Source of the DNA: an uncultured virus (IMG/VR IMGVR_UViG_3300031841_005832)
Taxonomy: Duplodnaviria > Heunggongvirae > Uroviricota > Caudoviricetes
Reading direction: 5' to 3' (one strand)
Length of the DNA stretch: 20,000 nt
IMG/VR virus record: IMGVR_UViG_3300031841_005832
Made by a program: the position numbers and the translations under genes
Shown here: piece by piece, positions 1,426-19,877 of the stretch
How the letters are laid out: every line of letters begins with the position of its first letter
Numbering within the stretch: the first letter of the stretch is position 1
The notes under the pieces: generated by a model
Seen by the model: only the letters and a program-made list of their open reading frames with translations
Databases searched by the model: none
What the model was told of the DNA's origin: nothing

Positions 1426-1783
1426 AGTCTAAAACGTCCCTATAAATTCTATCGATCTGAACTGTGTATTCTTTGTCAAGATCAGTTATTCTGTTAATGT
1501 CTTTCGTGTAAATCTCTATGTTAACCTCTAGATGATCGATTCTCATCTGACCGTGATGATTAACATGATCTTCGTGCATCATGACTTCGGAAACAAAGCT
1601 GGCTAACCTCTTTCGAGAGACGAACTTAAATGTTTTCGAAAATCTTTCCGGATCTGTGTGTACTTCCCACGAGAACTTTTTTACTTGAACCGGTTGTAAA
1701 CTAGTGGGTATACCAAAAGGATCACGTCCAATTTCGGTGTTCTCAAAATATTCGTTCAAGAGTCTTTTTAAACTAGTTTTCAT
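1412..1783 (-). CDS. Pterin-4-alpha-carbinolamine dehydratase (PCD/DCoH)-like protein, degenerate
   Basis: Pattern W...KTFKF...FV...NHH...V.I.IYTKD..RITDLD...ID matches the PCD fold; canonical HHP and THD appear as HHG and TKD. Confidence 0.75.
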   Translation of the reverse strand: MKTSLKRLLNEYFENTEIGRDPFGIPTSLQPVQVKKFSWEVHTDPERFSKTFKFVSRKRLASFVSEVMMHEDHVNHHGQMRIDHLEVNIEIYTKDINRITDLDKEYTVQIDRIYRDVLDFDCR

Positions 1784-5085: not shown

Positions 5086-5766
5086 CTATGCAGTCAGAGT
5101 CTTTGAAGATTTTTCAATTCTCTTAATTCTCTTTTCAATAACTTCCCAGTCAAACTCTTTCATCATTCTTAAGACGTACGATCTTCTGTCGTCTAGGTAG
5201 TCTCTGTAGTAGGCGCCTTCTGCGACGTCAAGAGATATTACAGGAAGGAAACCAATGGGAACGTTTAAAGACTCAGTGTCAACAACTATGTTCATATACC
5301 TTTTAAGAAAAGTAGAATAGCCAGTGACAGCATATCCGTCTCTTGACGACATTGCGCAAGCTATGAAATCTTTTTGCCAAGCATCAAAACCCCCGAAGTC
5401 TCTTTCGAGTCTAAGAAAACTCATCATATCCATAGTCAGAGAACTCTTTAGATCTGAGATGTTTTCAAAATGTAAAGCTCTTAAAAAAGCAGCATTCATA
5501 CAGTGAGACTCGTCTATTTTTAATCCCCTGAATTTGCTTTTCTTATCACTCGCAGCATCTCTATCTACAGTATCTAGCTGCGCACTGATTTCATTTAACT
5601 GATCTACGAATTTCTCGAAGTCTTTCTGTCTAGCCACTTTTACCTTCTCTGACAGTGACTCAGTATTTAGACTGAATTTTTTTGCCTGAGTTACGTAAGC
5701 TTCCTCTAGAACTCCAGAAAGAGATTCATTGATGACTCTTTTTAAATCTTTCTTTATGTCAGACAT
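5086..5766 (-). CDS. Fe/Mn superoxide dismutase-fold protein, probably catalytically inactive
   Basis: ERDFGGFDAWQKDF, LPVISLDVAEGAYYRDY and DWEVIEKR match the Fe/Mn-SOD C-domain (canonical DxWEHAYY); His ligands are replaced. Confidence 0.8.
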   Translation of the reverse strand: MSDIKKDLKRVINESLSGVLEEAYVTQAKKFSLNTESLSEKVKVARQKDFEKFVDQLNEISAQLDTVDRDAASDKKSKFRGLKIDESHCMNAAFLRALHFENISDLKSSLTMDMMSFLRLERDFGGFDAWQKDFIACAMSSRDGYAVTGYSTFLKRYMNIVVDTESLNVPIGFLPVISLDVAEGAYYRDYLDDRRSYVLRMMKEFDWEVIEKRIKRIEKSSKTLTA

Positions 5767-6120
5767 TTATTTGACCTCGTATTCTTTTTCAAATTCACTT
5801 TTAGGAACAGCCAAGAGATCTTCTTCAGACTCAGGCTCTTCTTCGTCGGGCTCATAAATTTCAACGCTAGGATCTACCTCATAAAGAACTGATCCTCCGC
5901 TAAGATCTTTCATTAAGTCAGGAGAGGCAACTTGATCTTCTTGATCTATTCTAGGCTCTTCGGGCATCCTCAAAAGAACTACAAGCTCTCCGGCGTCGTC
6001 TTTCGCAACAGAGTCTACAGTATACTCGTACTGAGACTTTTTGTGTCGAACTTTTAAGTCAGGGGATATCACGATGTTTCCGTGCTTATCCTCTAGATCC
6101 ATTTCGTTTATTTTAGTCAT
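5767..6120 (-). CDS. Hypothetical acidic protein
   Basis: 117 aa, ATGA overlap with the upstream gene, abuts the downstream gene. Confidence 0.75.
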   Translation of the reverse strand: MTKINEMDLEDKHGNIVISPDLKVRHKKSQYEYTVDSVAKDDAGELVVLLRMPEEPRIDQEDQVASPDLMKDLSGGSVLYEVDPSVEIYEPDEEEPESEEDLLAVPKSEFEKEYEVK

Positions 6121-8339
6121 TTTATGGTTCCTGCCATTTTGTTCATTCTGTAGGCCATCATCTCTACCTCTGAATATTTCTCCTGAGATTCAACTAGAAC
6201 CTTGTCAAAGTCTTTATAGAATTTTCTGTTAAGAAATTCAAAAACTATCTTTTCAACATTTGACTCATTTAGAAAAAACTTAGATTCATTTGATTTTTTG
6301 ATCATTGATCCTACAAGCTGAGGTATTAACTGCTGAAGAGAGTCGAAGTTCTTTTTAGCGAACCTTCTGCTTTTTACAAGTGTTTCTTCGTGCTCTGCTC
6401 TCCATTTTTTAATAGCATTGGCAACTTGTCTCTCGACTGACTTCGCGGTTTTATCTAAGCCAGTCTGAACGAGACCCTTGAGCTGATCTAACCTTTTCTT
6501 GGAAGTCAGTGACTTTTGGCTCGTGGCAGAAAGACCTCCCATCCAAGAGTCCAAGGCGCCTAGGGCTGCATCTGTAGGGCTCTGACTTTGACCTTCTTCT
6601 TCTTTCACTGCGGCTTCAAGTTCTGCCTGAACTTCTTGTTGCTCTTCTTTTGCTTCAGCAGGAGCAGCCGGTGCTGGTTCATCAGCTGCAGCTGTTGCAT
6701 CTCCTTCAATCTTCTCTCCCAGCTTAGAGGCCGGAAATCTGAAAGGCGGCTTCTTGAAACCGCCCTTGCCGTCTGACCTCATAGCAAAAACATCACCATC
6801 GTCGAAGATTTTTTCAATTTTAACAACCAGCTCTTTGCCTTTGTTGGTAGTGTAGTTGTAAATTTCTCCAACCTCAGCTTTGGGACCCTCATCTTTCTTT
6901 TCTTCTGGGACTCCCGTTACTTCAACTTCAGCAGAAGCAAGAGTATCAGCCATCGATCTAGCGAGAGAATTCTGAACAGATTCGTCGTCTGATGCCTTGT
7001 CTGCTGCCTTGGACAAGGTATCGAAAGGAACGTCTTCGAAAAGAAAAGGAAGAATTCTTCTTGACATTATGCTCTCGTCAATGTTTATCTTTCCTTGAAT
7101 AGCATCCTGAAATGCCTTGTCGTCCTTCAGAGCATCAACAAACTTCTGAGCTGACTCTTTGTTTTCAGATGCATCGACGTACTTCTTAGATATCTCAGAC
7201 CACTTCTGGCCGGCTTTCTCTTCAGAGGGTTCTTCTGCAGGTGTTTCGGCGGCAGGTTCTAGTCCTTCTTCCGCGGCTTCTTCTGCAACATCCTTGGGAT
7301 CTTTTCCTTTTGCTAAGTCTTCTGCGTCATCTGCAAGAGCTGCCTTTACTTCCTTGTCCGAGGCGTTTGCAAAGTCAGAAGGAAGTTTCCCTCCATTTGC
7401 ATCTTTAAGCATCCCTAAGAGATAATCTATTCTCTCGTCTGATGTCATCTTTCTTGGGTCGTAATCTCCTGCGCCCGTTCCTCCCGCACCAGCTCCCTTT
7501 TCAGAAGCAGCCTCCTCTGACTCAACTGCGTCTTGAGCAACATCGTCAAGATCTTTCATAGGAACTTTAGTGTCCTTAAGATCAGCAGCGTCGAAAACTG
7601 ACAAAGAAGTGTCCATTATAGCATCTGCCAGCTCTTGAGAAGCTACCTTGGCGTCAAGAGTAGGGATTGACTTAAGAATTTTACCTTGAGCACCGGGCAT
7701 GTTTTTAGCGAAAAAACCTTTGAGCTTTGCAAGAAAGCCCTGGGGTTTCATAGACTTCTCTATGGCTTTCTGAATTCCCTTTGTTAGTTTCGCTTCATCA
7801 GGAATTCCGCCCTGTCCGGCGATGTCTCTAAGAGGGGCGTTTTTAATTGAATCATCTTTTGCCAATGGAACTAGATTGTCTTCTATGTTCTGTAGGGCAT
7901 CGGTAAAACCTGTTAAGAACTGATTTGCCTTTGTCTGAATTGCTATCGCGGCCTTGGCAATTCCTGGCGCAGACATCTTACTTCCCATAAAGCTAGCTAT
8001 TTTTCCAGAGTCAAAATTAACTGCAGCAAAATCGCCCTGAGCTTTGTCTATCGCAGTCCCTAGGTCGGTTATCATCTTGGTCACAGAAGGAATCTTAGTT
8101 ACATCCAGACCTTTTGACTTAAGGCCGTTAAGATAGTCTTCAAGCTTTTTAATCTGTTGTCTAGAACCATCTAGTGCGGATTTTACCTTCGCAGCCTCAG
8201 CCTTGTCTATTTTCTCAGAAATCAAAAATCTTAAAGATCCCTCTGTAAGGGAGTGTTCAGCCTCTTCTATATAATGAGCTTTTGTGAATATTCTATTAAG
8301 CTCAGGGTCAGAAGATACCTCTATTAATTTTTCTTGCAT
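6117..8339 (-). CDS. Large Ala/Glu/Lys-rich hypothetical protein (possible internal head protein)
   Basis: ORF 6117-8354; ATG 8339 has a GAGG SD; helical blocks separated by acidic/Pro-Ala linkers; ends RMNKMAGTIK. Confidence 0.85.
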   Translation of the reverse strand: MQEKLIEVSSDPELNRIFTKAHYIEEAEHSLTEGSLRFLISEKIDKAEAAKVKSALDGSRQQIKKLEDYLNGLKSKGLDVTKIPSVTKMITDLGTAIDKAQGDFAAVNFDSGKIASFMGSKMSAPGIAKAAIAIQTKANQFLTGFTDALQNIEDNLVPLAKDDSIKNAPLRDIAGQGGIPDEAKLTKGIQKAIEKSMKPQGFLAKLKGFFAKNMPGAQGKILKSIPTLDAKVASQELADAIMDTSLSVFDAADLKDTKVPMKDLDDVAQDAVESEEAASEKGAGAGGTGAGDYDPRKMTSDERIDYLLGMLKDANGGKLPSDFANASDKEVKAALADDAEDLAKGKDPKDVAEEAAEEGLEPAAETPAEEPSEEKAGQKWSEISKKYVDASENKESAQKFVDALKDDKAFQDAIQGKINIDESIMSRRILPFLFEDVPFDTLSKAADKASDDESVQNSLARSMADTLASAEVEVTGVPEEKKDEGPKAEVGEIYNYTTNKGKELVVKIEKIFDDGDVFAMRSDGKGGFKKPPFRFPASKLGEKIEGDATAAADEPAPAAPAEAKEEQQEVQAELEAAVKEEEGQSQSPTDAALGALDSWMGGLSATSQKSLTSKKRLDQLKGLVQTGLDKTAKSVERQVANAIKKWRAEHEETLVKSRRFAKKNFDSLQQLIPQLVGSMIKKSNESKFFLNESNVEKIVFEFLNRKFYKDFDKVLVESQEKYSEVEMMAYRMNKMAGTIK

Positions 8340-8375
8340 TGAAAACCTCAACAATGTCGCAATGATAGTCTGTTA

Positions 8376-8392: not shown

Positions 8393-8815
8393 TCATTTTA
8401 GACGCCTTGTTTGAATAGACATCTCTTCTAAAATTGAGATCGAAGACTCATCTCTGTAAAGGTCTTTGTAGATAACCTCAGAGATTCCAGAGTTTATGAT
8501 TGCTTTTGCACACATTCTGCACGGAAGAAGAGTTACGTACATCTTCTTCTTTTTCGGATTGTTGTAGTCCATCTTGAGAAGCGCGTTGATCTCCGCGTGA
8601 AGCATACCTGACTCGCCTGGAATTACAGATTCTACCTCGTTAGGTCCACCTGAGTAGTTTCCATTGTATCCCACAGCGAGGACTTGAGTATTATCTTCAG
8701 TTACTACAATTGCCCCGACTTTATGACGAGGGTCATAAGATCTTTCGGCCAGGGCTTCGGCGGTCTTCATCCAGACTTCGTCCCAGGTTGGTCTAGAATT
8801 CATAGAATACCTCAA
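8393..8815 (-). CDS. dCMP deaminase
   Basis: RPTWDE, VGAIVV, GYNG, HAEINAL and PCRMC zinc motifs all intact. Confidence 0.93.
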   Translation of the reverse strand: MRYSMNSRPTWDEVWMKTAEALAERSYDPRHKVGAIVVTEDNTQVLAVGYNGNYSGGPNEVESVIPGESGMLHAEINALLKMDYNNPKKKKMYVTLLPCRMCAKAIINSGISEVIYKDLYRDESSISILEEMSIQTRRLK

Positions 8816-9699
8816 GTCTTCTCAGAAGATTGTTTCTTCCTGGTTGTTCTTTTTGGTTTGTCAAAGATATCTTCAACATGCTTGTTCTTTGGAAGCTGAA
8901 ATCCTGCAGCTTTTTTGTGTCCTCCTCCGCCGAACTTCTTCGAAATTTCAGAAACATCGACAGTGTCGTGAAACGCTCGAAGACTAACTTTAGTGTGCTG
9001 AGCGTCGTGATCCCAGTACCATATCATTGCAAAGTCACAGTCAGGTGCAAGTCTAGTTCCAATCTCAGACATCCAGTGAGAAGCGTTAACTACAAGGACC
9101 TCTTTGTCGTCAAGCTTTCTAAGCTGAGCTTTTTCACAAACCTTCTTGACGACCGTCTTTGAGTATGCAAGAATGTAACTTCCTCGCTTTACAGCGTCGT
9201 CAAACACAGAGTCGTCTTCAAACTTCTCGAACTCCTCAAACTCAAAAGGAACCATGTCAAAAGCAGCGCTAAACTCTTTGGAGTAGTCAAGCTCCCAAGT
9301 CCAAAGGTCCCTATCCTGGATGTATTTCACGAACTTGGGAGGCTCTTTCCCAGGGTGAAAGAACTCCCACGAAAGAATTGCTCCTGACTTTGTCATGTCA
9401 AAGTGAGTGTTTGATATGTCGTGAAGCTCTACCATCGCTGACTTGTGGTGATCTATTACGAGAAGACTGTTTGCCTCCTCTATCATTTTCTTGGTGGTCG
9501 GGTTATCAAAGGAAAAGTCTAGAATCACTACGTTCTTTCCCTTAACATCTGGGGGCGGTGTCCCGTGTTTGCAAGCATGATATTCTGCCCTGTTGCCTAA
9601 AAGCTTCCACGCAGAGTACGCTGCACCGAAACCGTCTGTACAATCTGCGTGATATATAACGCAATCTACACTAGAGGGTTCAAGCATTTTCTTCTCCAA
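8812..9699 (-). CDS. DHH/DHHA1 family phosphoesterase
   Basis: YHADCTDG, ILDFS, IDHHKS, DRDLW, SLR and FGGGGHKKAAGF motifs. Confidence 0.92.
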   Translation of the reverse strand: MEKKMLEPSSVDCVIYHADCTDGFGAAYSAWKLLGNRAEYHACKHGTPPPDVKGKNVVILDFSFDNPTTKKMIEEANSLLVIDHHKSAMVELHDISNTHFDMTKSGAILSWEFFHPGKEPPKFVKYIQDRDLWTWELDYSKEFSAAFDMVPFEFEEFEKFEDDSVFDDAVKRGSYILAYSKTVVKKVCEKAQLRKLDDKEVLVVNASHWMSEIGTRLAPDCDFAMIWYWDHDAQHTKVSLRAFHDTVDVSEISKKFGGGGHKKAAGFQLPKNKHVEDIFDKPKRTTRKKQSSEKT

Positions 9700-10261
9700 G
9701 TTCCTGATTCATAAATGAGGTATGTGTCCAGGCTCTAGGTTCATAAATATCAGAGCCCCCTACCTCAATTTCTTTAGCTATTTCTTTTTTTCTAACAGTG
9801 TAATAAGCGTCTGCACCTGATCTCGGGCAAACCGCGGGACAAATCTCTATCTTCGTGGCCCACGGAAGTATGTCTCTAATTTCTTCAAAAACCTGGCCCG
9901 TGGCTGATAACTGTATGGAAGAAACTATTATTGACTTTCCTTTTTTGAAGAGTTTTACAAGAACGTCTGCAACTCCGTCTATCATGAAAGCTTCATCAAC
10001 GGCAATCACGTCATAGTCTTCAGCTTTTTGTAGTATCTCTGCTCCGGAGTTGATGTTTCGGGCAGTGAACTTCATGCCTGTGTGGGTCACGATTTCTCCC
10101 TCTGAGTACCTGTTGTCCATCTTAGGCTTGAACGCTATAACCTTCTTGTTCTGGTAAGAAGCTCGCTCAATAGCTGCTAGCATCTTTGTGGTTTTTGAGC
10201 CAAACATCGGGCCTGTAAAAACTATGAAATAGGGCTGTTGTATCAATGCAGTATCTCTCAT
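9680..10261 (-). CDS. tdk: Thymidine kinase (type II), divergent
   Basis: GPMFGSKTT P-loop, KPKMDNRYS, IAVDEA and IEVGGSDIYEP; zinc-binding cysteines mostly absent. Confidence 0.88.
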   Translation of the reverse strand: MRDTALIQQPYFIVFTGPMFGSKTTKMLAAIERASYQNKKVIAFKPKMDNRYSEGEIVTHTGMKFTARNINSGAEILQKAEDYDVIAVDEAFMIDGVADVLVKLFKKGKSIIVSSIQLSATGQVFEEIRDILPWATKIEICPAVCPRSGADAYYTVRKKEIAKEIEVGGSDIYEPRAWTHTSFMNQELGEENA

Positions 10262-10273
10262 TCACTCGTTAAA

Positions 10274-10294
10274 GTGTGAAATAAATATTCACAC
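10274..10294 (-). terminator. Short stem-loop, possible weak terminator or regulatory hairpin
   Basis: GTGTGAA/TTCACAC 7-bp arms in the intergenic gap, only three T after it on the minus strand; overlaps an ATATTTA motif. Confidence 0.3.
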
Positions 10295-10304
10295 AAAAAG
10301 CAGG

Positions 10305-11222
10305 TCATTTCTCGTGTATCCAGTGAGCACTGTTTAATTTAAGATCAATAGAGTAAGTTTTACAATTTAAAAAATACTTTTTAGAAAGTCTAAGAACGAG
10401 AAAGTTAAGAAATTCAATGTCTATCTTGGCGTTCTTGTCTGCGTTAGTACTCCTAAAAGTAGAAACGCAAGAAACGTGATCTCCTCTAGGTAAAAGATGG
10501 ACAGAAGAAATACAAGAATCAGAGCTGTAGTAAAATCTTCGACTGGACATGTCCTGCTTTGAATTGTAAGGATTTAAACCTCTTAATTCCTTGCGTATGA
10601 CATTTTCAAGATCCCACAATATTTCTTTATAGTAATGACCCTCTAAAGGATCCAGAAGTATTGTTTCGTCTTCTGGATCATCAAGAGAGCCTGATAACTT
10701 ACATTGAATCTGATGCTCGTCAGATTCGTGGTTCTTAACAAACTTTCTCACCATGTCGCCGACAAAAGAACAAGACTCACTTTCAGAAGATTCTAAGAAA
10801 TCAATGCTCAAATCTAAAAGATCGTCGTCGATATTTCTAAGAACTAGAACACTAGGTAAATCCTGTATCTTCTCAACTTCTTCTTCATAAATTCCGTGAA
10901 GATATCTAAGAGTGTCAAGCGTCTGAATTTCGTCGCCTCGGGAAATATACCGAGATCTAAGAACAGAAAATTCTGGTAGAATTATTATCATTCTGTTGTT
11001 GATGTTTGAAAGCTCTTCTTTGAGACGCTGTCTTTCAATATCAACATTTCTTCCGAATTGCCTCGAGAAGCAGATTCTAGAAAGAGCACTTCTGTCCCTG
11101 ATGTCCCACTTGAAAAGCGTTGCTTTATGAATCTTATTGTATAAAGTAGTCTTTCCTGAGAGGTCTGGCCCTTCTAAAGAAACTGTGTTTATCTTAAAAA
11201 TCTTTTGATCAATCATATGCAT
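10305..11222 (-). CDS. dNMP (thymidylate-kinase-like) kinase fused to a C-terminal thymidylate-synthase-like domain
   Basis: N-term EGPDLSGKTT...DRSALS...RGDE; C-term SRR...C...SC...FRSTN...D...SAH follows the order and spacing of the ThyA/dCMP-hydroxymethylase core. Confidence 0.72.
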   Translation of the reverse strand: MHMIDQKIFKINTVSLEGPDLSGKTTLYNKIHKATLFKWDIRDRSALSRICFSRQFGRNVDIERQRLKEELSNINNRMIIILPEFSVLRSRYISRGDEIQTLDTLRYLHGIYEEEVEKIQDLPSVLVLRNIDDDLLDLSIDFLESSESESCSFVGDMVRKFVKNHESDEHQIQCKLSGSLDDPEDETILLDPLEGHYYKEILWDLENVIRKELRGLNPYNSKQDMSSRRFYYSSDSCISSVHLLPRGDHVSCVSTFRSTNADKNAKIDIEFLNFLVLRLSKKYFLNCKTYSIDLKLNSAHWIHEK

Positions 11223-14200
11223 CTATCTTCTTCATCTTGTAACAACTAGTTGAATATCCCCAGGCCTCATCGTGAGAAACGTCGGCAACCCACATGCTGT
11301 ATGGCAAAATAGATTCCTTTGGATTGCCCCAAACTCGGAGCCAGACCGACTTGTAAGAGTTGTTGATGGCTTTGATTCTGTGAAATATTTTTCCATTCTT
11401 TGTCTTTTTTTGAATTACCTCAGTCGCACAAAGCCACCCTATGCCTCTTTCTCCTGCTGGGATATCATGAATAGAGGCCATGTTCTTTTCTTCGATTCTA
11501 GAGATAAGCTCTGGCGGAAACACGAGATCAGCTGCGGCGCCTGATGTTATGTCGACGTAGTTTGCGATCTTTTCATGACGGCTCCAGTCCGGGAGGTTTT
11601 CATACTTTTCAATTAGCCTCTTGACAATGGGAACGAGCATCTCATCGTTTTTCTGTGCTCTCTTCACCTGAGTTTTTGTCATTCCATAAAAACCTTTTCG
11701 AAGAGTGTCATAGTTCTTGTCGTCTGTTAGAACTGCCAAGAGTTGTCTGTGATTTTCAATGGACCCCGTCTTGAAGTCTTCAAGCGTAGAAAGAGCTTCA
11801 ATCTTGCAAAGAGAGGTAAAAGCCGTTTTATTTACTTTCGAGTGCTTCCAGGTTCCGTCTTCGTTGTAAAGAAGATTGTTTAGATCTTTGTAGGGCCTCA
11901 TGTTAATCATCTCAAACATAGCGGCATTACCCAAACCTTTTACCGAAGACAAAGGAGGAACAAAAGCGTTAACATCCTCAGAGAAAGACCATTGCTCGCC
12001 TGACAGGTTTATATCTGCTGGAGCAAATTCATAACCGTAGCTCTTTATCTCAGACATGGTTTTTGCAAGCCCTGCCGGACTGTTATTCTCAGACTGAAGA
12101 ATCGTTGCCAGCCATTCTTTTTCGTAATGAGTGTGAAGCCAAGCTGCGTAATAAGAGTCAATAGCATAAGCGACGGAGTGTGACTTATTGAAACCGTAGG
12201 CAGCAAATGCTTCGATTGTTTCCCATAGTCTGGTCGATATCGATCTATCTACTCCATGGAGAGATTCAGCCCCTTCGATGAACTTTTGTTTTGCAACCTC
12301 TCGCTCGTTCATCTTGCCGTCAGCTGTATCAAGAGACTTTTTAACCAAAGTCTTTCGAAGCTTGTCAGAATCTCCGGGAGAGAAACCGGCTAGCTCAGAC
12401 GCAAGGGTCATGAATTGCTCTTGAAAGACGACGAACCCAGAAGTAGGACCCAGAACTTTTTCAATAATAGGGTGGTCATACGTTATGCTAGAAGCATCTT
12501 TCTTGGCTTTTACATATTTCCTATGAACGTTTGCCTTCAAAGGTCCTGGACGATAAATCGCAGTGATAGCAGCAAGGTCCTCTATAGACTCAGGCTTTGC
12601 CTGGAGACAGAACTTTCGAGCGCCTGCATTAGTAAACTGAAAGACGCCTGTGAAGTGACCGTCATGATAAACATGTTTCCAGACACCTAAATCATCCTGA
12701 AGCACGTTTCTGCAGTTAAGCTTCTCATCAAAAAAGTCTTTGACATCTGCAAACGTAGGAGAAGGATTGCCTTCTTTCTTGAGAACCCGGAATATACAGT
12801 TCTCCACATCTTTCAAAAGAGTAAGTCCAAGAAAGTCAAACTTTAGAAAACCGTTTGCTTCCAAAGTTCTGAAGTTCATGCCTTCTGTCCACGGAGTCTG
12901 TAGTTCACCTCGAACTCCAATGATCGGCATAGTCTTTTCAAGCATTTCAGAAGGAGCTATGATTACACCACCTGCATGTCGACCAATAGATCTGTTTTCC
13001 ATGAAGAGAGTTTCAACGTGCTTTCCAACTTCCGGATACTTTTCCATGAAGTCTTTGTACCCCTTGGAGTGATTCATGCTATCTTCGTGAGTAAGAACGA
13101 ACACAGACTTTTCAATGTCATCACCTTTTGCCATAGACATGACTTCATCTTGAAGAGGACCTGTCATTTTATTGACTTCGTCAAACGGAACCTTATAAAA
13201 CTTTGAGATATCCTTGACAAGAGACTTAAGCTTAAGAGTGTTAAAATTAGAAACAGGAATAACTGAGTCTTCACCGTACAACTCCTTAGCAGAATCGATA
13301 AGGGCATCTCGGTCGCCGGCGTCTGTGTCGATGTCAGGCCAGGAAGCCTTATGACGTCCTAGAAAGCGATTCCAAAGAAGCCCATATGGAATGGGATCTA
13401 TCTGAGTTATTCCTAGCAAGAAATTAACAAGAGAGCCGCCGCCTGAACCTCGACCAGGGCCTAGCAAGGTTCTGTCCTTAGCCTTGTTGAAGATCTCGTA
13501 CATCGCCAGGAAGTAAGCTTCATGTCCTAGATACTTTATATCAGAGAGTTCTTCTTTTGCTCGAGCAATATACTCAGGTTTATCAGCGAATCCTTCTCGA
13601 ACTAGGCCGTCTTTAATTAGATCTGAGAGCATTGAAAATGCGGTTTTCTCAGGGGTTCCGAAATGAGGTAGCTTGGCTCCTGTGTCTATCCACGTATCAT
13701 CACACATTTGCCATGCTATGTCGTGTGTTCTTTCGATAGCACCCTTAACAAGATCTTCTTTGCCGTGATAAAAGTCGTATTCTTCGTATCCTAAGTGAAA
13801 CTCTTCCCACATCTGCATCGCGTTCTTGGGGTAGAGCATACACTTCATTTCTTCTTTTTTCGGAAGAGTCTGTTCGTCAAGTTTTGCACCAATCCACCCG
13901 AGCTTCTTGTAAAGCTCGCGGGCTTGCCATTTGTCGGTCGAAGGAAAGTGAGAGTCAGCTGTAGCTACAAGCGGAATGCCTGTCTTTTCGGATAGATTCA
14001 TCAAGCACATGTTTGTAAGGTGCTGTGCCGAAAGGTTATTAAACTGTATCTCGAGAAAGAAGTTGTCGCGGCCTACGCAGTCAACAAATCTATCTGCAGC
14101 ATTTTCTAGGCTGGTCATGACTTCTTTAGCAAGAGACTCTGCTTGAGGGCCTCGTAAAAGATCGGGATGAAGATCTAAGAAAGTCTTGTCAGGAAATTGT

Positions 14201-14874
14201 CGATAAATAAGAGAAGAGGGATAGCCTCCAACACAAGCTGTAGAGACTACAAGACCTTCTCCATGTTCTTTGAGCATTTTATAGTCGATTCGAGGGAACC
14301 GATAAAAGCCGTGCTTGTATGACTTCTTCACAAGAGTAAAGAGATTACCGAGACCGACTTTGTTCTTAGCTATGACAACGAGGTGATAATACCTTTTCCA
14401 TTCAGGCTTGTTACCCCTAGCTCGCTTAGTTTCCTCTTCATCTTCGATGATCAAACCACCTTGCTCAAGGTCATCTTCTGCGTCTACGACGACAGGAGAC
14501 TTAGCAAGAGATTCTTTTCTTTTCGCAGTCTTTGCATCTTTGACAGCCTGCTGGTGAGCTTCATATTGAGACTTCCAATCGTCAAGAGAAGGAACAAAAT
14601 AAAATTCAACACCGTAGAGCTGTCGATACTTTTTGCCTTGCTTTTGGATCTTTTCAGCGTGGACCCTAGCGTGAGCAAGGCCAGAACCATTTCCGTGATC
14701 TGTCAAAGCCCATGAATCCATGCCCTGGCCCTCAGAGACAATGAAATCTATGTGATCCTTAGGATAACCTAGGCCATCAAATGTACTGAAAGAAGAGTGA
14801 GCATGCAAACCTGTAAACCGGGTAGGTGCTCGATTGAAGAATTCTGATTTTGAAATCTTTGTCATATGTTCCAT
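11209..14874 (-). CDS. dnaE: DNA polymerase III alpha subunit (family C, DnaE type)
   Basis: LHAHS, LTDHG, GPGRGSGGGSLV, PDIDTD, HAGGVII, KFDFLGL, GVFQF, RPGP, FQEQ, YGFNKSH. SD spacing favours the second ATG at 14865. Confidence 0.97.
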   Translation of the reverse strand: MEHMTKISKSEFFNRAPTRFTGLHAHSSFSTFDGLGYPKDHIDFIVSEGQGMDSWALTDHGNGSGLAHARVHAEKIQKQGKKYRQLYGVEFYFVPSLDDWKSQYEAHQQAVKDAKTAKRKESLAKSPVVVDAEDDLEQGGLIIEDEEETKRARGNKPEWKRYYHLVVIAKNKVGLGNLFTLVKKSYKHGFYRFPRIDYKMLKEHGEGLVVSTACVGGYPSSLIYRQFPDKTFLDLHPDLLRGPQAESLAKEVMTSLENAADRFVDCVGRDNFFLEIQFNNLSAQHLTNMCLMNLSEKTGIPLVATADSHFPSTDKWQARELYKKLGWIGAKLDEQTLPKKEEMKCMLYPKNAMQMWEEFHLGYEEYDFYHGKEDLVKGAIERTHDIAWQMCDDTWIDTGAKLPHFGTPEKTAFSMLSDLIKDGLVREGFADKPEYIARAKEELSDIKYLGHEAYFLAMYEIFNKAKDRTLLGPGRGSGGGSLVNFLLGITQIDPIPYGLLWNRFLGRHKASWPDIDTDAGDRDALIDSAKELYGEDSVIPVSNFNTLKLKSLVKDISKFYKVPFDEVNKMTGPLQDEVMSMAKGDDIEKSVFVLTHEDSMNHSKGYKDFMEKYPEVGKHVETLFMENRSIGRHAGGVIIAPSEMLEKTMPIIGVRGELQTPWTEGMNFRTLEANGFLKFDFLGLTLLKDVENCIFRVLKKEGNPSPTFADVKDFFDEKLNCRNVLQDDLGVWKHVYHDGHFTGVFQFTNAGARKFCLQAKPESIEDLAAITAIYRPGPLKANVHRKYVKAKKDASSITYDHPIIEKVLGPTSGFVVFQEQFMTLASELAGFSPGDSDKLRKTLVKKSLDTADGKMNEREVAKQKFIEGAESLHGVDRSISTRLWETIEAFAAYGFNKSHSVAYAIDSYYAAWLHTHYEKEWLATILQSENNSPAGLAKTMSEIKSYGYEFAPADINLSGEQWSFSEDVNAFVPPLSSVKGLGNAAMFEMINMRPYKDLNNLLYNEDGTWKHSKVNKTAFTSLCKIEALSTLEDFKTGSIENHRQLLAVLTDDKNYDTLRKGFYGMTKTQVKRAQKNDEMLVPIVKRLIEKYENLPDWSRHEKIANYVDITSGAAADLVFPPELISRIEEKNMASIHDIPAGERGIGWLCATEVIQKKTKNGKIFHRIKAINNSYKSVWLRVWGNPKESILPYSMWVADVSHDEAWGYSTSCYKMKKIDAYD

Positions 14875-14951: not shown

Positions 14952-15404
14952 TTATTCGATTGCTTGATCGTAAGGCTCTTCAATTAAGGTGCCCTCGGCA
15001 TTGCACCGATCGAGGTAGTCTTCAAGCTCTTCGAAAGAAGTGCAGACCTTAATACCGCTTCGAGCAAGCATCAAATTAAATTTAGCGCCTGCAGGAAGCC
15101 CTGCGCAGAAATAGACGATAGGAACTTCGTTGGCAAAGGCAAAGCCTGCTTCCCAAATAGTACCGATATCTTTATCGCGCGTGTTAACGATCAAAAAGTC
15201 AGCTGTCTTGATGTGATGTAAGTTTCCATCAAAGGTAGCATCCTGGGTTTCTTTTGGAGCATTCGGTGGGCAAACAAAGATTCGACGAGGTGATGCCAAA
15301 TCGATCCATTCTCGCTCATCACAAATCGCTTCAAGTCTAGATAGTTCTTCTGCTTGAGTTGGGTTAAACCAGCCTGATGCTAAATAAATCTTACGTGTTG
15401 TCAC
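14952..15404 (-). CDS. Nucleoside 2-deoxyribosyltransferase / nucleotide N-glycosidase family protein
   Basis: IYLASGWF, SP, ADFLIV and DIGTIWEAGFAFA..VPIV (catalytic Glu motif D-x-G-T-x-x-E-x-G). Confidence 0.88.
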   Translation of the reverse strand: MTTRKIYLASGWFNPTQAEELSRLEAICDEREWIDLASPRRIFVCPPNAPKETQDATFDGNLHHIKTADFLIVNTRDKDIGTIWEAGFAFANEVPIVYFCAGLPAGAKFNLMLARSGIKVCTSFEELEDYLDRCNAEGTLIEEPYDQAIE

Positions 15405-16384
15405 TTCGTACCTCCAAATTCGTTTTCGTAGTTAGTCTTGAGAGTGTTGAACTCTTCCATTAGTTCACGCCACATTGTTGTGAATACCTTTTCACCTTCA
15501 CCATGTGTACCGTTTAGTTCTTCACGTCGACACTGATAAATGGTGTCTTGTGGGTGGTGTTCGAACTTATCGTTCTTAGGTTCTGGATAATAAAGATTTG
15601 TACCTCGTGAGATCCACTTGTCACCTTCCTGTACACGGAATGTCTTGATGTAGTGAACATCAGGGGCATCGAAGTTGAAAACCTGTGTTAATTCAGGAAT
15701 CGCCTTACATGCAGCAATCGCCATTTGTGCTGCAAGAATGTTATCAGCAGCAGGTTGAATTTGCCTGTCCTGACGTTGTCGAACAAAACCAATGAGATCC
15801 TTGAGATTCAACCGCATGTAATAGAATGAGGTCATCGCCTTAGGAAGAATCATTCTAGCATCCATCATCGAAATAGTCTTCGAATCGGTCATGTCGGCAT
15901 ACAGCTGCTTAGAATCCTCAACGAGTTTCTTGTAGCGTGCAAGAAATTCAGGTGAGTTTTCAACAGATTCTGGAATCACAGCATCATCGTCACGAAGGTC
16001 ACGGTCACCTGTACATTGTGCAGCGAAAGAACCAGCACGGTGTCGAATGATGTGAGTTACTTCTTGAAAGGAAAGACCTGACAACCTGAAAGTGAAACCT
16101 AAACATTCCATTGGAGTTGGTAATGCCCGAAACTGTAGAACATCCAGAAGGTTCTTGCTCTTGTGTTCATCAGCAGCAGTTGTAGGATCGATCTCGCTTG
16201 GCTGATCTGCCCAGGTCGCCTTCACATAGTGCCAAGCAACATTACGTGCTTGTTCAGTTGTAGGCGCATCCACGAGTTCTGTCGTAAGCGCACGAAGGTT
16301 GTTGTGGAAAGTTGTGGTAGGTTGTTGACCAAACTTCAACTCCATTGGAAGTTCAATCGGTTCAAGATCATTATTGATGGGCAT
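15401..16384 (-). CDS. thyX: Flavin-dependent thymidylate synthase (ThyX)-like protein, divergent
   Basis: TPME..FTF, RHRxxSF, DARMILP and NLKDLIGFVRQR; the RHRx7S serine is Cys. Confidence 0.85.
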   Translation of the reverse strand: MPINNDLEPIELPMELKFGQQPTTTFHNNLRALTTELVDAPTTEQARNVAWHYVKATWADQPSEIDPTTAADEHKSKNLLDVLQFRALPTPMECLGFTFRLSGLSFQEVTHIIRHRAGSFAAQCTGDRDLRDDDAVIPESVENSPEFLARYKKLVEDSKQLYADMTDSKTISMMDARMILPKAMTSFYYMRLNLKDLIGFVRQRQDRQIQPAADNILAAQMAIAACKAIPELTQVFNFDAPDVHYIKTFRVQEGDKWISRGTNLYYPEPKNDKFEHHPQDTIYQCRREELNGTHGEGEKVFTTMWRELMEEFNTLKTNYENEFGGTK

Positions 16385-16622
16385 TATTTAACTCCTTGCT
16401 GTTGTTAATGTGATCTTCAATCATTACAGATGCGGTTGTGTATCCTTCTCTGTTACATCTAGTATCGCCTAAAACCATCCAAATGTACATTAGATAATCA
16501 GAAAAAACATCTTTTAGAATCTTTCTTTCTCTCAGCGAAAATTTTTCTTCTGGAAACCTTTGGTGTTCAATGGTTTTGACCATCGCATCATGGGCGATTC
16601 CCCAACCCGCTTGATACATCAT
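16371..16622 (-). CDS. Hypothetical protein
   Basis: 83 aa, ATGA overlap with the upstream gene, GGAG upstream. Confidence 0.65.
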   Translation of the reverse strand: MMYQAGWGIAHDAMVKTIEHQRFPEEKFSLRERKILKDVFSDYLMYIWMVLGDTRCNREGYTTASVMIEDHINNSKELNNAHQ

Positions 16623-17557
16623 TTGTTACGCTCCACTGAAGATGCGAGATCTTCTTCATACCAGTCAAAAGTGACCAGATTATCCAAGTTCCAAACGCTG
16701 CCGTTGTAAGAACGTTTCGGTACGAAAACCTTCACACCGTGATGGGCGTATTCTGCTGCGTTCTTGGGTGAATCATCCACGGCGAAAGAGATCGCGCCTT
16801 TCTTGAAGAAATCCTTATCTGCAAGCCAGCGGTACTTTTCTGAGGAGAACGCAACGTTATCGTAGGTGATTCCGTTTTGCCGCAACCAAAAGTGCGTATC
16901 ATAAACACACTTAAGATTATCGTGTGGGCGTGCTGTGAGTAACTGAATCCAGTAACCCTGATCCTTGAGGACCTTCAAAGAATTCGCAACACGCTCGTTC
17001 ACAGTGATTCTTCTTAATTCACCTTCATCAATGAACCGCATGAACGCTTCTTCGCCAGTGATATCACCACACATACCGTTGTAGTAATACTCAGGCATGT
17101 TTTCTGAGAGGTTCATATCGAACTCTTTGTTGATCCAATCAAAGAAACACTTTCGGAACTCACCGATCACATCATCGATATCTACCACCGCAACGGGTTG
17201 GCCGATCCAGTTACTGATGGGATTATTCTTTCGATCCCACAGGAACGCATCACGTGATTCAAACGCATCGATGATATCATCAGAACTAAAATCCCAGAGA
17301 TTTAGGGTTCCTAAGAAATAACGGAACACATCGATCGATTCATAAAGAATCTTTTGACGATCTGTTTGGGAAACATCTGAACGGTGGTCCTTGTAGTGAA
17401 CAGAATCTGCGAGTTGTGAAACTTCTGAATGTAACGCCAAACAGAACGTTTTATGCCGTTCGATCTTTTCCTCCTCGCTTAAGCGGCTGGAATCAAAGAA
17501 CTCCTCAGAGAATTTACGCTGAGTTTCTAATAAGATTTTTAGGTTATCTTTCAACAC
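16619..17557 (-). CDS. All-alpha NTP pyrophosphatase (dimeric dUTPase/MazG-like) domain fused to a HAD 5'(3')-deoxyribonucleotidase-like domain
   Basis: N-term ALHSEVSQL...YKDHR...YESIDVFRYFL; C-term VDIDDVI, LLTARP, K and AVDDSPKN HAD motifs. Confidence 0.82.
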   Translation of the reverse strand: MLKDNLKILLETQRKFSEEFFDSSRLSEEEKIERHKTFCLALHSEVSQLADSVHYKDHRSDVSQTDRQKILYESIDVFRYFLGTLNLWDFSSDDIIDAFESRDAFLWDRKNNPISNWIGQPVAVVDIDDVIGEFRKCFFDWINKEFDMNLSENMPEYYYNGMCGDITGEEAFMRFIDEGELRRITVNERVANSLKVLKDQGYWIQLLTARPHDNLKCVYDTHFWLRQNGITYDNVAFSSEKYRWLADKDFFKKGAISFAVDDSPKNAAEYAHHGVKVFVPKRSYNGSVWNLDNLVTFDWYEEDLASSVERNK

Positions 17558-17805: not shown

Positions 17806-18450
17806 ATGAGAGAAAAAGACGAAGAAATTTTAAACGCGGTAACTCACCTGTTAAGTGGAATTGCGTGTTTAGTTGTGATGGGTATTGTTACCCTAGATAG
17901 TAACATTCACCTCGTAGATCGAATCGCGTTTTTACCTATGATCGGAACCACAACTTGGACCTTCCTATCATCTTTCATATATCACGCCTCTGAAACTCGT
18001 TACATCAAAGAACGTAATCGCCAACTGGACAAATCCGCAATCTTCCTCATGATCCTGGGTTGTGGAGTTACCACCATTTGGACCTGTCACGATAAGATTC
18101 TCGCAATCACGTTCTCGATGATTCTTTGTACCGTTCTTTTCGCTTGTATCGCGAAGTTCTGCACCATGCGAAACTTTCCTGACTGGTTATCAGTTTCTAT
18201 CTACATCGTTGTGGGATGGATCGCAACCTTTCCCAGTTTAGGAATCTTTGCCGCTTCGGATTATACTCAACACGAAATGGTTCCTTGGGTTCTTCTTGTT
18301 GGCGGTTTCTACTGTACGGGTGTGATTTTCTATGCGCGTGATTCTGTCAAATGGTTCCATACCATCTGGCACCTGTTCGTGATGGCGGGTGCGGGAACAC
18401 ACCTCGCCACTCACATCTACGTGATGTATGCGAAATCAATACCCGTTTGA
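17806..18450 (+). CDS. Hemolysin III / PAQR-family membrane protein
   Basis: EEILNAVTH, SSFIYH, LDKSAIF, YIVVGW, GVIFY and HTIWHLFV...H; about seven hydrophobic helices. Confidence 0.92.
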   Translation: MREKDEEILNAVTHLLSGIACLVVMGIVTLDSNIHLVDRIAFLPMIGTTTWTFLSSFIYHASETRYIKERNRQLDKSAIFLMILGCGVTTIWTCHDKILAITFSMILCTVLFACIAKFCTMRNFPDWLSVSIYIVVGWIATFPSLGIFAASDYTQHEMVPWVLLVGGFYCTGVIFYARDSVKWFHTIWHLFVMAGAGTHLATHIYVMYAKSIPV

Positions 18451-18819
18451 GATACGATCTCGAATAATCTGGTCCTTCTTCCGATACGCCTCGTAGAAAT
18501 CATCCTCATTCACACCCACAAGTGCGAGAACTGAGAGGAAATAGTTGAACGCATCAACAACTTCTTCCAAGAACTCTTCCTTATCGAAATCCTGAATCTC
18601 AGTAGATCGGTGAGGTTTCCAGTTCTTCAGATGTTGTAACGCCTCAAACATTTCCTCGATACCTTTGAGTGCGGTATCCCGTAGGATTTGCTGCGATTTC
18701 TTTTCACTGATATTCACGGGCCATTCGGGATAGGTTCCCGGACGAGCCGCCTCCAGTGATTTCATAAAAGATTCTCTGAGTTCAAATAACTCAGTTAACC
18801 TGTCCTTGTTCGATTTCAT
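18436..18819 (-). CDS. All-alpha (dimeric) dUTPase/dCTPase-like NTP pyrophosphatase
   Basis: IEEMFEAL..LKNWKPHR...EEVVDAFNYF...Y.KK..I...R...GY, with intact ExxE and EExxD motifs. Confidence 0.85.
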   Translation of the reverse strand: MKSNKDRLTELFELRESFMKSLEAARPGTYPEWPVNISEKKSQQILRDTALKGIEEMFEALQHLKNWKPHRSTEIQDFDKEEFLEEVVDAFNYFLSVLALVGVNEDDFYEAYRKKDQIIRDRISNGY

Positions 18820-19027
18820 TGTTCGCCATCTCCGTTAGTTTTGCGAGGTTACTGTTGAACGTTTCAACAAACCCAGGATCAGGTTCCACGGTTCCATCAT
18901 CAGTGGTTACAACTCGCAGGGTTCGAATCTGATCTGAGATATCTGTTCCCGTCAAGATTCCCATTTGCACGAGCTGAATGATCTGTGCGATTGTTGAATC
19001 GGCCAACTTATACGTTTGAGTACTCAA
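18791..19027 (-). CDS. Hypothetical protein
   Basis: Within ORF 18791-19072; TTG at 19027 has an AAGGAG SD and follows the upstream stop directly. Confidence 0.7.
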   Translation of the reverse strand: MSTQTYKLADSTIAQIIQLVQMGILTGTDISDQIRTLRVVTTDDGTVEPDPGFVETFNSNLAKLTEMANNEIEQGQVN

Positions 19028-19028
19028 T

Positions 19029-19838: not shown

Positions 19839-19877
19839 GACGCACCTTCCTTTCTTGATATAGAATCTCAATGTTGT

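Follow-up and report, generated by a model that had tools for sequence, protein, structure and literature searches.

Results

A kinase/thymidylate synthase-like fusion gene in the window

The DNA examined here, termed the window, is a 20,000-nucleotide stretch from an uncultured virus (IMG/VR record IMGVR_UViG_3300031841_005832), a marine T4-like jumbo phage. The minus-strand open reading frame at 10305..11222 (305 aa in the open reading frame list of the window; ATG at 11222, stop TGA at 10305-10307) encodes a kinase domain followed by a small domain of the thymidylate synthase (TS) fold. The true start is probably the third codon, ATG 11216, which gives 303 aa; this start is favoured by the overlap with the stop of the DnaE gene (ATGATTGA) and by agreement with homologues of 303 aa. 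The strings SSRRFYYSSDSC, SCVSTFRSTNADKNAKIDI and NSAHW, quoted in a first-pass annotation of this DNA, were all found in the translation, and a codon check placed R228 and R229, C237, R257-S258-T259-N260, D268 (11 residues after R257) and H300.

The upstream gene (11209..14874, minus strand) encodes a DnaE-type DNA polymerase III alpha, and its stop overlaps the fusion gene start. In all 80 of 80 viral loci a DnaE-type gene lies no more than 10 kb from the fusion gene; the window DnaE had no relative above 30% identity among 50,697 GenBank phage records. Downstream are genes for a TK1-type thymidine kinase (9680..10261, minus strand; PF00265, 1.1e-33) and a dCMP deaminase (8393..8815, minus strand; PF00383, 7.9e-23), each seen in 66 of 80 loci. 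An all-alpha NTP pyrophosphohydrolase related to the T4 gp56 dCTPase/dUTPase (18436..18819, minus strand; PF08761, phrog_12184; BLASTP to T4 gp56, E 2e-6) could supply dCMP. Since the window encodes dCMP deaminase, thymidine kinase and also ThyX (15401-16384), dTMP synthesis is already covered. The salvage genes around the fusion gene are those for thymidine kinase, nucleoside deoxyribosyltransferase and 5'-nucleotidase. Canonical ThyA was found in none of five long related contigs and ThyX in all five (a canonical and a divergent copy); no dTMP kinase over the PF02223 cut-off was found in these five contigs.

A pterin-4a-carbinolamine dehydratase gene is located at 1412-1783 of the window. 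Four of the five long relatives also have it, at a distance of 8-14 kb from the fusion gene; the one without it is the contig in which the fusion copy no longer has the catalytic Cys. The window has no recognisable DNA glycosyltransferase or other DNA-modifying gene. For the 284-kb relative G001, 280 of the 293 called ORFs, of at least 90 aa, were scanned, and DHFR, SHMT, other folate enzymes, TET/JBP and T4-type glucosyltransferases were not seen among the 280. The same genome has many general glycosyltransferases and sugar-nucleotide enzymes.

The fusion protein belongs to a conserved, unannotated family of 276 homologues, which form 190 clusters at 50% identity and are carried by uncultured aquatic, marine and freshwater, T4-like jumbo phages. 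The window protein matched no Pfam model at E<=1 and no NCBIfam model, and its PHROGs matches were to a family of unknown function (E 0.002) and, over the P-loop only, to thymidylate kinase (E 0.005). Neither it nor the distant member P0255 had a tblastn match in the GenBank phage records mentioned above. A search for longer fused forms (554-2000 aa), which counts as weak evidence, found none. Literature searches on kinase-TS and dCMP hydroxymethylase-dNMP kinase fusions, YorR, and AfhB/HY126 returned no description of the family, which is thus unpublished as far as these searches show.

The kinase domain

AlphaFold2 gave a full-length model (pLDDT 95.7, pTM 0.90) of two domains, residues 7-149 and 150-305. 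The N-terminal domain (10776..11204, minus strand) has a trimmed thymidylate-kinase/deoxynucleoside-kinase fold by model, VIA-align and profile match. Its closest structures by VIA-align were B. subtilis YorR (3kb2, Z 13.2, 140 residues aligned), M. mycoides deoxyadenosine kinase (2jaq, Z 13.2) and S. aureus TMK (Z 12.7), and its profile matched YorR 2axp at E 4.2e-10. The three elements of the P-loop NMP-kinase fold are all present: the P-loop EGPDLSGKTT (residues 17-26; 11145..11174, minus strand), which aligns with that of E. coli Tmk (hhalign E 1.1e-4); the DR(Y/S) motif of TMPK- and dNK-type kinases at D43-R44 (11091..11096, minus strand); and an Arg-rich, lid-like RYISRGDEIQ (residues 91-100; 10923..10952, minus strand), aligned to YorR RLRVRGDEY. 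Over the 193 full-length family members used for all conservation counts, K24 was conserved in 191, D43 in 185, R44 in 192, R91 in 192, R95 in 185 and D97 in 185. Profile, models and structural Z values of 12-13 thus bear out the earlier reading of the N-terminal part as a kinase, and place it among the P-loop kinases of thymidylate-kinase/dNK fold.

The window protein itself had no match to PF02223 or TIGR00041. Two distant members passed the PF02223 cut-off of 27 bits (P0255, 41.4 bits; P0243, 30.7 bits), and the members that pass dTMP-kinase models do not pass the dNK model; the TIGR00041 score of P0255 was 42 bits, below the cut-off of 83.25. Residues 37-138 of P0255 correspond to positions 95-196 of the dTMP-kinase model (TIGR00041, 8.1e-11; PF02223, 1.6e-10). 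The domain is shortened, with 130-140 residues aligning to TMPKs of about 195-205 residues: its DR motif lies 19 residues past the P-loop, and TMPKs have about 60 more residues in this interval. Likeness to the T4 kinase gp1 was limited to the P-loop (hhalign probability 0.4%, E 0.16).

The TS-fold domain

The C-terminal domain (residues 150-305; 10308..10775, minus strand) modelled alone gave pLDDT 94.2 and pTM 0.89. The top Foldseek match for the TS fold was 9iqu, the dCMP hydroxylase AfhB of phage HY126 with dCMP (E 1.3e-5, probability 1.00). For the domain alone, VIA-align aligned 134-142 of the 156 residues with MilA (5b6e, Z 11.6), 9iqc (Z 11.0), 9iqu (Z 10.7) and TS (about Z 10). A wide search of 48,161 representative chains returned seven with Z>=8, all seven of the TS superfamily, the best unrelated chain having Z 5.9. 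From the Foldseek ranking, 395 of 995 chains reached Z>=8; among the 50 entries listed 49 were TS-superfamily enzymes, and the other was 4f2v, a de novo designed hydrolase aligning over TS-like residues 1-214. By sequence, hhalign matched residues 150-305 to the dCMP hydroxymethylase (T4 gp42) profile with 96.4% probability (E 1.2e-9), and the family profile searched against the PDB found T4 dCMP hydroxymethylase at E 0.021. A likeness to TS of this strength cannot be put down to chance. The Pfam TS model is nearly blind to it: of 76 C-terminal domains, PF00303 matched two at E<=0.1 (the better at 0.064) and none over the 24.3-bit cut-off, and it matched the fragment P0242 at E 0.0047 (16.6 bits).

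The TS fold that the first-pass annotation had suspected is therefore found by AlphaFold2, Foldseek and VIA-align alike, in a domain of about 156 rather than some 110 residues. The N-terminal part of TS, thought at first to be missing, is represented by a helix and a long strand, and the alignments span E. coli TS 1-214. What is missing are internal segments of about 100 residues and the C-terminal ~50; the alignments end at E. coli 212-214 of 264, and the window protein ends 5 residues past H300. In TS, the C-terminal tail closes on folate. The model has only one helix between E194 and G215, and nothing in the sequence alignment pairs with the Trp80/Trp83 segment of TS. According to PMC6400193, this region in TS, like Ile81/Trp82/Val85 in T4 dCMP hydroxymethylase (dCH), helps to bind folate; the T4 folate contacts given there (Ile81, Trp82, Val85, Tyr218, Arg220) have an aligned counterpart that is absent or non-conserved in the window protein. 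With the C-terminal ~50 residues and the internal cofactor-binding segments missing, the domain has no established pocket for either folate or flavin.

Active-site residues

The equivalents of the catalytic Cys, of R166-S167 and of the phosphate-site pair R126/R127 of the TS superfamily are present in the window protein. Alignment to E. coli ThyA paired SRR with SRR126-127 and D268 with N177; hhalign to T4 gp42 paired C237 with C148, RS with RS, D268 with D179 and H300 with H216. Accordingly R228-R229 (10536..10541, minus strand) correspond to the phosphate-binding Arg pair (E. coli R126/R127, T4 R123/R124), C237 (10512..10514, minus strand) to the nucleophile (E. coli C146, T4 C148), D268 (10419..10421, minus strand) to E. 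coli N177 and the cytosine-specifying T4 D179, and H300 (10323..10325, minus strand) to E. coli H207 and T4 H216. R257-S258-T259-N260 (10443..10454, minus strand) align with E. coli R166-S167-C168-D169, so that Asn stands at the D169 position. E194 (10641..10643, minus strand) is a candidate equivalent of TS Glu58 and T4 dCH Glu60, its pairing with Glu60 falling in a stretch of the global hhalign alignment that has low confidence. PMC6400193 gives roles in T4 dCH for Cys148, Asp179, Glu60 and Arg123/124.

The Asp 11 residues after the RS arginine, the Cys at the nucleophile position and the RSxN motif were thus all as first described. They are also kept in the homologues: R228 was conserved in 188 of the 193 members, R229 in 180, C237 in 187, R257 in 187, S258 in 188, D268 in 190, H300 in 187 and E194 in 188. 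One locus of 79 viral loci (L078) has lost the Cys, one Arg, the RS and the His with its kinase intact, which suggests that the kinase has value without TS-like catalysis. A role of the TS-like domain in dTMP synthesis was rejected in view of the invariant Asp in place of the uracil-reading Asn and of the presence of ThyX.

Both the N177D and the D169N equivalents (D268, N260) are carried by the window protein, and N260 is common to it and its five nearest relatives. As stated in PMC13326640, TS homologues with these two substitutions are flavin/O2-dependent 5-hydroxy-dCMP (5hodCMP) synthases, N177D giving dCMP specificity and D169N being diagnostic. Position 260 in the family was D in 106, N in 72 and E in 7 of 193 members, and changed among D, N and E at least 24 times on the family tree, as against a mean of 62.5 and a minimum of 55 when the labels were shuffled; such lability is difficult to reconcile with a drastic change of cofactor at every step. 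When the gene clusters of 81 loci were compared with the state of position 260, no cluster of known function tracked N. The position of TS L143, set in register by the hhalign pairing of S233-S144 to C237-C148, is S234 in the window protein, so that the acidic residue of 5hodCMP synthases and T4 dCH is absent; in the 193 members it was S in 111, D in 33, Q in 20 and E in 6.

Comparison with known systems

The flavin/O2-dependent dCMP 5-hydroxylases AfhB of E. coli phage HY126 (9iqu, 9iqc), RB69 gp48 and DLP3 gp80 share the TS fold, and 9iqu/9iqc were the top Foldseek and tied-top VIA-align matches (137 residues aligned). Like the window protein, these synthases have a nucleophilic Cys, an Asp and an Asn at the positions of N177 and D169, respectively, and an SAH motif before the end of the last strand; they act together with a phage dNMP kinase (PMC13326640). 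However, they are free-standing and of 217-238 residues, whereas the window domain has 156, lacks the C-terminal part and is fused to its kinase; they have Glu rather than Ser at the L143 position; and the Asn that is diagnostic for them at the D169 position is not fixed in the fusion family (N 72, D 106 of 193). The supplement of PMC13326640, in the part available, shows no IMG/VR identifiers for the nine metaviromic homologues tested in that study. The PDB codes 9IQU, 9IQC and 9IR2 were named in no relevant paper that our literature search found.

T4 gp42 (1b49, 6l18) is the best sequence-profile relative, with equivalents for all of Cys148, Arg123/124, Arg168-Ser169, Asp179 and His216, and both it and the window protein come from a T4-like phage with a gp56-like dCTPase. 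It differs in its 246 residues, in its folate dependence, in having Asp171 and Asp145 where the window protein has Asn260 and Ser234, and in being unfused, its kinase gp1 being unrelated to the window kinase domain; its VIA-align Z was only 8.8. From the T4-type set of Asp179, Asp171 and Asp145 with a methylene-THF site, the window copy has only D268. The core of the fold is shared by the ThyA enzymes of E. coli and L. casei and by the CMP hydroxymethylase MilA (Z values of 9.6-11.6 over 134-142 aligned residues), with SRR, Cys and RS aligned, but ThyA has Asn177 (uracil) and 264-316 residues.

The kinase-then-TS order recurs in viral 437-aa "thymidylate kinase / thymidylate synthase domain" proteins (an ESM Atlas cluster of 62 members), for which comparison by features and structure gave a feature score of 0.90 and a structure TM of 0.50 over residues 12-301. 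These are about 130 residues longer and have a full TS domain, Pfam-recognised in 100% of members. YorR of the B. subtilis SPbeta prophage shares the EGPDxxxK, DR and RxRGDE motifs with the window kinase but is a free-standing protein of 173 aa; no functional study of YorR turned up in our literature search.

Discussion

The analysis shows a minimal TS-fold domain fused to a P-loop kinase of thymidylate-kinase/dNK fold, in an unannotated family. We lean towards the interpretation that the fusion protein is bifunctional, making a C5-modified dCMP and phosphorylating it for use in phage DNA. The putative substrate, dCMP, would be bound by the TS-like domain with Asp268 reading the cytosine, its phosphate being held by Arg257/Ser258 and by Arg228/Arg229, the latter probably contributed by a partner subunit of a presumed dimer. 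Cys237 would attack C6, and a group would be installed at C5. The kinase domain would then phosphorylate the modified dCMP to the diphosphate, a host enzyme would add the last phosphate, and the altered nucleotide could be used by the DnaE polymerase encoded in the overlapping upstream gene. The single most likely product, named here tentatively, would be 5-hydroxy-dCMP, ahead of a hydroxymethyl or methyl transfer from methylene-tetrahydrofolate or the addition of another group; it is favoured because the window's clade has both the N177D and the D169N substitutions. Folate-independent chemistry, suggested in the first-pass annotation as a possibility, now has a published precedent in the N177D + D169N synthases, which, according to PMC13326640, needed a cognate dNMP kinase for efficient incorporation of 5hodCMP into DNA.

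The TS-like domain might instead be a non-catalytic cytidylate-binding module that regulates, or gives specificity to, a fused kinase with a shortened NMP-binding region. The trimming of the kinase (the DR motif 19 residues past the P-loop, and P0255 37-138 falling on model positions 95-196), the missing TS cofactor-binding parts and the intact kinase beside a degenerate TS-like domain in L078 are all consistent with this. However, binding alone does not explain why Cys237, His300 and Glu194 are kept in 187, 187 and 188 of 193 members, and the nucleotide phosphate, which in the TS family is buried by four Arg, would not be expected to face the kinase. We hold such a module to be rather unlikely, and the near-invariance of the nucleophile Cys favours an enzyme. 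A miniature folate-dependent dCMP hydroxymethylase or methylase of the T4 gp42 type, with the kinase domain or a partner subunit supplying the folate contacts, would fit with sequence homology being strongest to T4 dCH, with Asp at the D169 position in 106 of 193 members and Asp or Glu at the L143 position in 39 of 193, as in hydroxymethylases, and with a fixed packing of the two domains, implied by the full-length pTM of 0.90. It is made distinctly unlikely by Asn260 and Ser234 in the window copy, by the lack of a folate enzyme among the 280 scanned ORFs of G001, and by the absence of the C-terminal tail that closes on folate.

The order of steps could also be reversed, the N-terminal domain acting as a deoxynucleoside (deoxycytidine) kinase that supplies the TS-like domain with dCMP by salvage of dC, and the product being phosphorylated by a separate kinase. 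By fold, YorR and the M. mycoides deoxyadenosine kinase (Z 13.2) tie with the TMPKs (Z 12.7), the DRSxLS...RQ and RxxxRGDE motifs are ones that we take to resemble dNK motifs as well, and the neighbourhood is rich in salvage genes. Against this order, no other dNMP kinase over the PF02223 cut-off was found in the five long related contigs, the distant members pass dTMP-kinase models and not the dNK model, and the family is without similarity to T4 gp1; we consider it very unlikely. Finally, there is a slim chance that the TS core represents a new class of enzyme, one that modifies pyrimidines at C5 with another co-substrate after losing the pocket that classically holds folate or flavin. One candidate would be a reduced pterin with O2, the 4a-hydroxypterin being recycled by the phage pterin-4a-carbinolamine dehydratase; another would be reduced flavin passed on by the divergent ThyX paralogue, whose gene lies at a distance of 4 kb. 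If so, a cytosine modification not yet described, the product of one fused synthase-kinase, would be present in a widespread clade of T4-like jumbo phages from marine and fresh waters.

Were the bifunctional synthase-kinase active, it would be the smallest known TS-fold enzyme (about 156 residues, compared with 217-316 in solved relatives) and a natural fusion of base-modifying and kinase steps that in T4, RB69 and DLP3 are done by two separate proteins. It would also point to a modified cytosine in the DNA of abundant uncultured marine and freshwater jumbo phages, with consequences for how they withstand host restriction and CRISPR and for metagenomic sequencing bias. The natural variation between D, N and E at position 260 in the family also provides a way to learn the actual effect of the "diagnostic" Asp169-to-Asn change. 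Because the Pfam TS model is blind to the family, Pfam-based surveys of DNA-modification genes, such as the one described in PMC13326640, probably miss it. The fusion gene was found in seawater metagenomes of at least seven studies, the contigs carrying it all being Illumina assemblies, and RNA-library contigs from one study, possibly representing DNA carry-over, also overlap it.

The fusion ORF and its start

Listing of the open reading frames in the window gave a minus-strand frame at 10305-11222 encoding 305 residues, in exact agreement with the first-pass annotation, and every sequence string quoted there was found in its translation. By codon check, the kinase domain carries the P-loop EGPDLSGKTT (residues 17-26), D43-R44 and RYISRGDEIQ (residues 91-100), and the thymidylate synthase (TS)-like domain carries E194, R228-R229, C237, R257-S258-T259-N260, D268 and H300, all encoded on the minus strand; the Asp annotated 11 residues past the RS arginine (R257 to D268), the RSxN in place of RSxD and the Cys at the nucleophile position were each borne out. 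The first ATG is at 11222, and a second ATG, at 11216, shares bases with the stop codon of DnaE, the gene upstream (ATGATTGA). The product is likely to have 303 residues, because the 303-aa homologues and the Atlas record start at this second Met; residue numbers here are those of the 305-aa form.

Family and conservation

The fusion protein had no match in Pfam or NCBIfam, and its PHROGs matches were to a family of unknown function (E 0.002) and to thymidylate kinase over the P-loop only (E 0.005). A word-index search with a threshold of E<=1e-3 returned 276 proteins from marine and other metagenomes, most of them 296-312 residues long; an exhaustive HMMER search returned 190 cluster representatives (E<=1e-30 for 63), and none of 50,697 GenBank phage records matched. 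It is well supported that the kinase/minimal-TS fusion is a real feature, carried by an abundant group of uncultured phages. Literature searches turned up neither a description of the family nor one of a kinase joined to a minimal TS fold; a 437-aa viral cluster in the ESM Atlas, auto-named thymidylate kinase/thymidylate synthase, shares the domain order but has a full-size TS domain.

The key residues are almost invariant across the 193 full-length aligned members. Within the kinase domain K24 is kept in 191, D43 in 185, R44 in 192, R91 in 192 and R95 in 185; within the TS-like domain the counts are 188 (E194), 188 (R228), 180 (R229), 187 (R257), 188 (S258) and 187 (H300), and the Cys and Asp singled out in the annotation are conserved in 187 (C237) and 190 (D268).

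Fold of the two domains

The AlphaFold2 model of the whole protein, built on a 68-sequence alignment, had a mean pLDDT of 95.7 and a pTM of 0.90. Structural comparison of residues 7-149 by VIA-align gave Z 13.2 for both YorR of the B. subtilis SPbeta prophage (140 residues aligned) and Mycoplasma deoxyadenosine kinase, and Z 12-12.7 for thymidylate kinases, of whose 190-205 residues only 130-139 were aligned. The family profile matched YorR also at the sequence level (E 4.2e-10), and distant family members passed the Pfam dTMP-kinase cut-off; alignment with E. coli Tmk was limited to the P-loop, and T4 gp1 gave no alignment with the family.

Residues 150-305 modelled alone had a pLDDT of 94.2. 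They gave Z 11.6 with MilA, 11.0 with the riboflavin-dependent dCMP monooxygenase 9iqc, 10.7 with AfhB (9iqu) and about 10 with many ThyA chains, 134-142 of the 156 residues being aligned and covering residues 1-214 of E. coli TS; Z values no more than 1 apart are ties. A Foldseek-independent search of 48,161 representative chains found Z>=8 for seven, all of the TS superfamily, the next best being Z 5.9; the modelled domain thus matched only this superfamily. Foldseek with the whole model ranked 9iqu (HY126 dCMP hydroxylase AfhB) first (E 1.3e-5), and in the viral structure library the top rank went to the gp42 homologue of Acinetobacter phage Acj9. The TS fold proposed in the first-pass annotation was therefore recovered by AlphaFold2, Foldseek and VIA-align alike; its start, proposed near residue 185, was moved to near residue 150 by the model and the structural matches. 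The domain is reduced, as annotated, in that it is missing internal segments of TS as well as the final ~50 residues, but its N-terminal helix and long strand are present, along with helix B, three central strands, helix J and the last strand. The Pfam TS model reached only 2 of 76 C-terminal domains at E<=0.1, none above its cut-off.

Residue equivalences and the predicted product

Family residues 150-305 were aligned by hhalign with a profile of T4 gp42 (dCMP hydroxymethylase), 60 homologues and E. coli ThyA (probability 96.4%, E 1.2e-9). The SRR arginines 228-229 paired with T4 Arg123-124, C237 with Cys148, R257-S258 with Arg168-Ser169, N260 with Asp171, D268 with Asp179 and H300 with His216; E194 paired with Glu60 where the global alignment has low confidence, in its N-terminal part. 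In E. coli ThyA the SRR arginines, C237 and D268 correspond to Arg126-127, Cys146 and Asn177. PMC6400193 describes the roles of the equivalent residues in the T4 enzyme.

Lee et al. (NAR 2026; PMC13326640) show that dCMP is hydroxylated to 5-hydroxy-dCMP (5hodCMP) by TS homologues from several sources, RB69 and DLP3 among them, with a loosely bound flavin and O2, and that 5hodC was UV-visible in DNA only when a cognate dNMP kinase was co-expressed. There, dCMP use is marked by Asp at the N177 position (E. coli ThyA numbering) and non-methyl products by an acidic residue at the L143 position, and Asn at the D169 position is proposed to identify 5hodCMP synthases. In the window protein the first and last of these are matched by Asp268 and Asn260, but the L143 position is occupied by Ser234; Asn at 260 is shared by the five relatives nearest to it. 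Across the family position 260 is D in 106, N in 72 and E in 7 (n=193), and in 79 viral loci N in 36, D in 28 and E in 15; a FastTree tree requires at least 24 state changes, against a mean of 62.5 and a minimum of 55 when the labels are shuffled. Because of this variation, 5-hydroxylation of dCMP by the window's clade is kept as our leading guess rather than as a finding.

Gene neighbourhood

The fusion gene sits in a minus-strand run of genes for replication and nucleotide metabolism: dCMP deaminase (8393-8815), DHH phosphoesterase (8812-9699), thymidine kinase (TK, 9680-10261), the fusion gene, DnaE (11209-14874), nucleoside deoxyribosyltransferase (14952-15404), a divergent 327-aa ThyX (15401-16384; PF02511, 3.2e-20, under the TIGR02170 cut-off), a MazG-like all-alpha NTP pyrophosphohydrolase (dUTPase_2/MazG-like) fused to an NT5C-type 5'-deoxynucleotidase (16619-17557), a small all-alpha NTP pyrophosphohydrolase of the same dUTPase_2/MazG-like kind, related to the T4 gp56 dCTPase/dUTPase (18436-18819; E 2e-6), and an Fpg/Nei glycosylase (19029-19871). 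Also in this run, at 5086-5766 (-), is a superoxide dismutase (SOD)-like gene whose product resembles Fe/Mn superoxide dismutase in the C-terminal domain alone (1.2e-13); of about 80 related loci, 54-55 keep it within the replication/nucleotide module. When 80 IMG/VR loci were surveyed up to 10 kb from the fusion gene, we found DnaE in 80, TK and dCMP deaminase in 66 each, the SOD-like gene in 54, DHH in 48, the deoxyribosyltransferase in 47 and the ThyX paralogue in 36.

None of five long related contigs (202-284 kb) has a canonical ThyA or a dTMP kinase above cut-off; each of the five carries a canonical ThyX gene plus a divergent one, the divergent copy lying close to DnaE and the fusion gene. 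The divergent ThyX retains the RHR motif but shows only remote similarity (BLASTP 8e-5) to a related phage's canonical ThyX, and its role may lie outside dTMP synthesis.

In most relatives NAD-dependent epimerase/dehydratase (RmlD-like) genes adjoin the fusion gene and DnaE, e.g. at 18497-19513 of locus L096 and 4144-5106 of L097 (contig G001); the cluster occurs in 62 of 81 loci at a median of 968 bp from the fusion gene, is absent from the window, and possibly represents a link to sugar-nucleotide supply. The 43-nt spacer between the fusion and TK genes (10262-10304) holds the inverted repeat GTGTGAA-N7-TTCACAC (minus-strand reading). A 745-aa acidic Ala/Glu/Lys-rich protein at 6117-8354 (-) has no Pfam or PHROGs family match, and only 4 of 80 related loci encode a homologue; the only annotated plus-strand gene encodes a haemolysin-III-family membrane protein (17806-18450; PF03006, 2.2e-24).

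A degenerate copy and the PCD gene

One related copy (L078:9986-10876 (+), on contig G004) has an intact kinase domain and a degenerate TS-like domain, with Cys to Asn, RR to RN, RS to KQ and His to Tyr substitutions. The kinase therefore has a role independent of the TS-like domain, and conservation in the rest of the family reflects selection, not inertia. Pterin-4a-carbinolamine dehydratase (PCD) is encoded at window 1412-1783 (-), in the minus-strand run; 28 of 81 loci have a PCD gene no more than 10 kb from the fusion gene, and four of the five long contigs have one 8-14 kb away. The one contig without it is G004, whose fusion copy also lacks the catalytic Cys; this joint absence, a single case on an 84%-complete contig, is a lead only. 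The 284-kb relative G001 showed no pterin-dependent hydroxylase.

Proposed pathway and alternatives

Beyond the observed fold, homology, residue conservation and gene linkage, we infer the following pathway by analogy with T4 and RB69. The gp56-like enzyme would hydrolyse dCTP and dCDP to dCMP, which the TS-like domain would bind through Asp268 and the Arg/Ser cluster; Cys237 would add to C6, and the activated C5 would receive a group from a cofactor. The fused kinase would convert the product to the diphosphate and host NDP kinase to the triphosphate, for incorporation by the DnaE polymerase; translation of the DnaE gene is presumably coupled to that of the fusion gene.

Three other readings remain beside this pathway. 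The TS-like domain may bind cytidylate without any catalysis and so regulate the trimmed kinase, or it may be a miniature classical folate-dependent hydroxymethylase or methylase; alternatively, the order may be reversed, with a deoxynucleoside kinase supplying the TS-like domain.

Host phage, occurrence and possible expression

G001 (284 kb, CheckV 100%) is a T4-like myovirus with gp23 capsid, gp20 portal, gp32 and baseplate proteins, and also encodes DnaE, RNR, topoisomerase II and many sugar-nucleotide enzymes and glycosyltransferases; among 280 of its ORFs scanned, no DHFR, SHMT, TET/JBP or T4-type glucosyltransferase was seen. A 7-kb stretch round the fusion gene is present in seawater, marine and biofilm metagenome assemblies, and 15 DNA runs, not counting three possible source runs, each contain 38-89% of its sampled words; the DNA runs come from seven studies. 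Two metatranscriptome libraries, both from one study, yielded contigs that map to portions of this stretch, one of which (10480-10727, 98% identity) falls within the fusion gene; these contigs possibly represent RNA, or else DNA carry-over. A single RNA-library contig (run X19), which may derive from a related strain, skips 75 bases between 10240 and 10316, a gap that takes in the spacer together with one end each of TK and the fusion gene.
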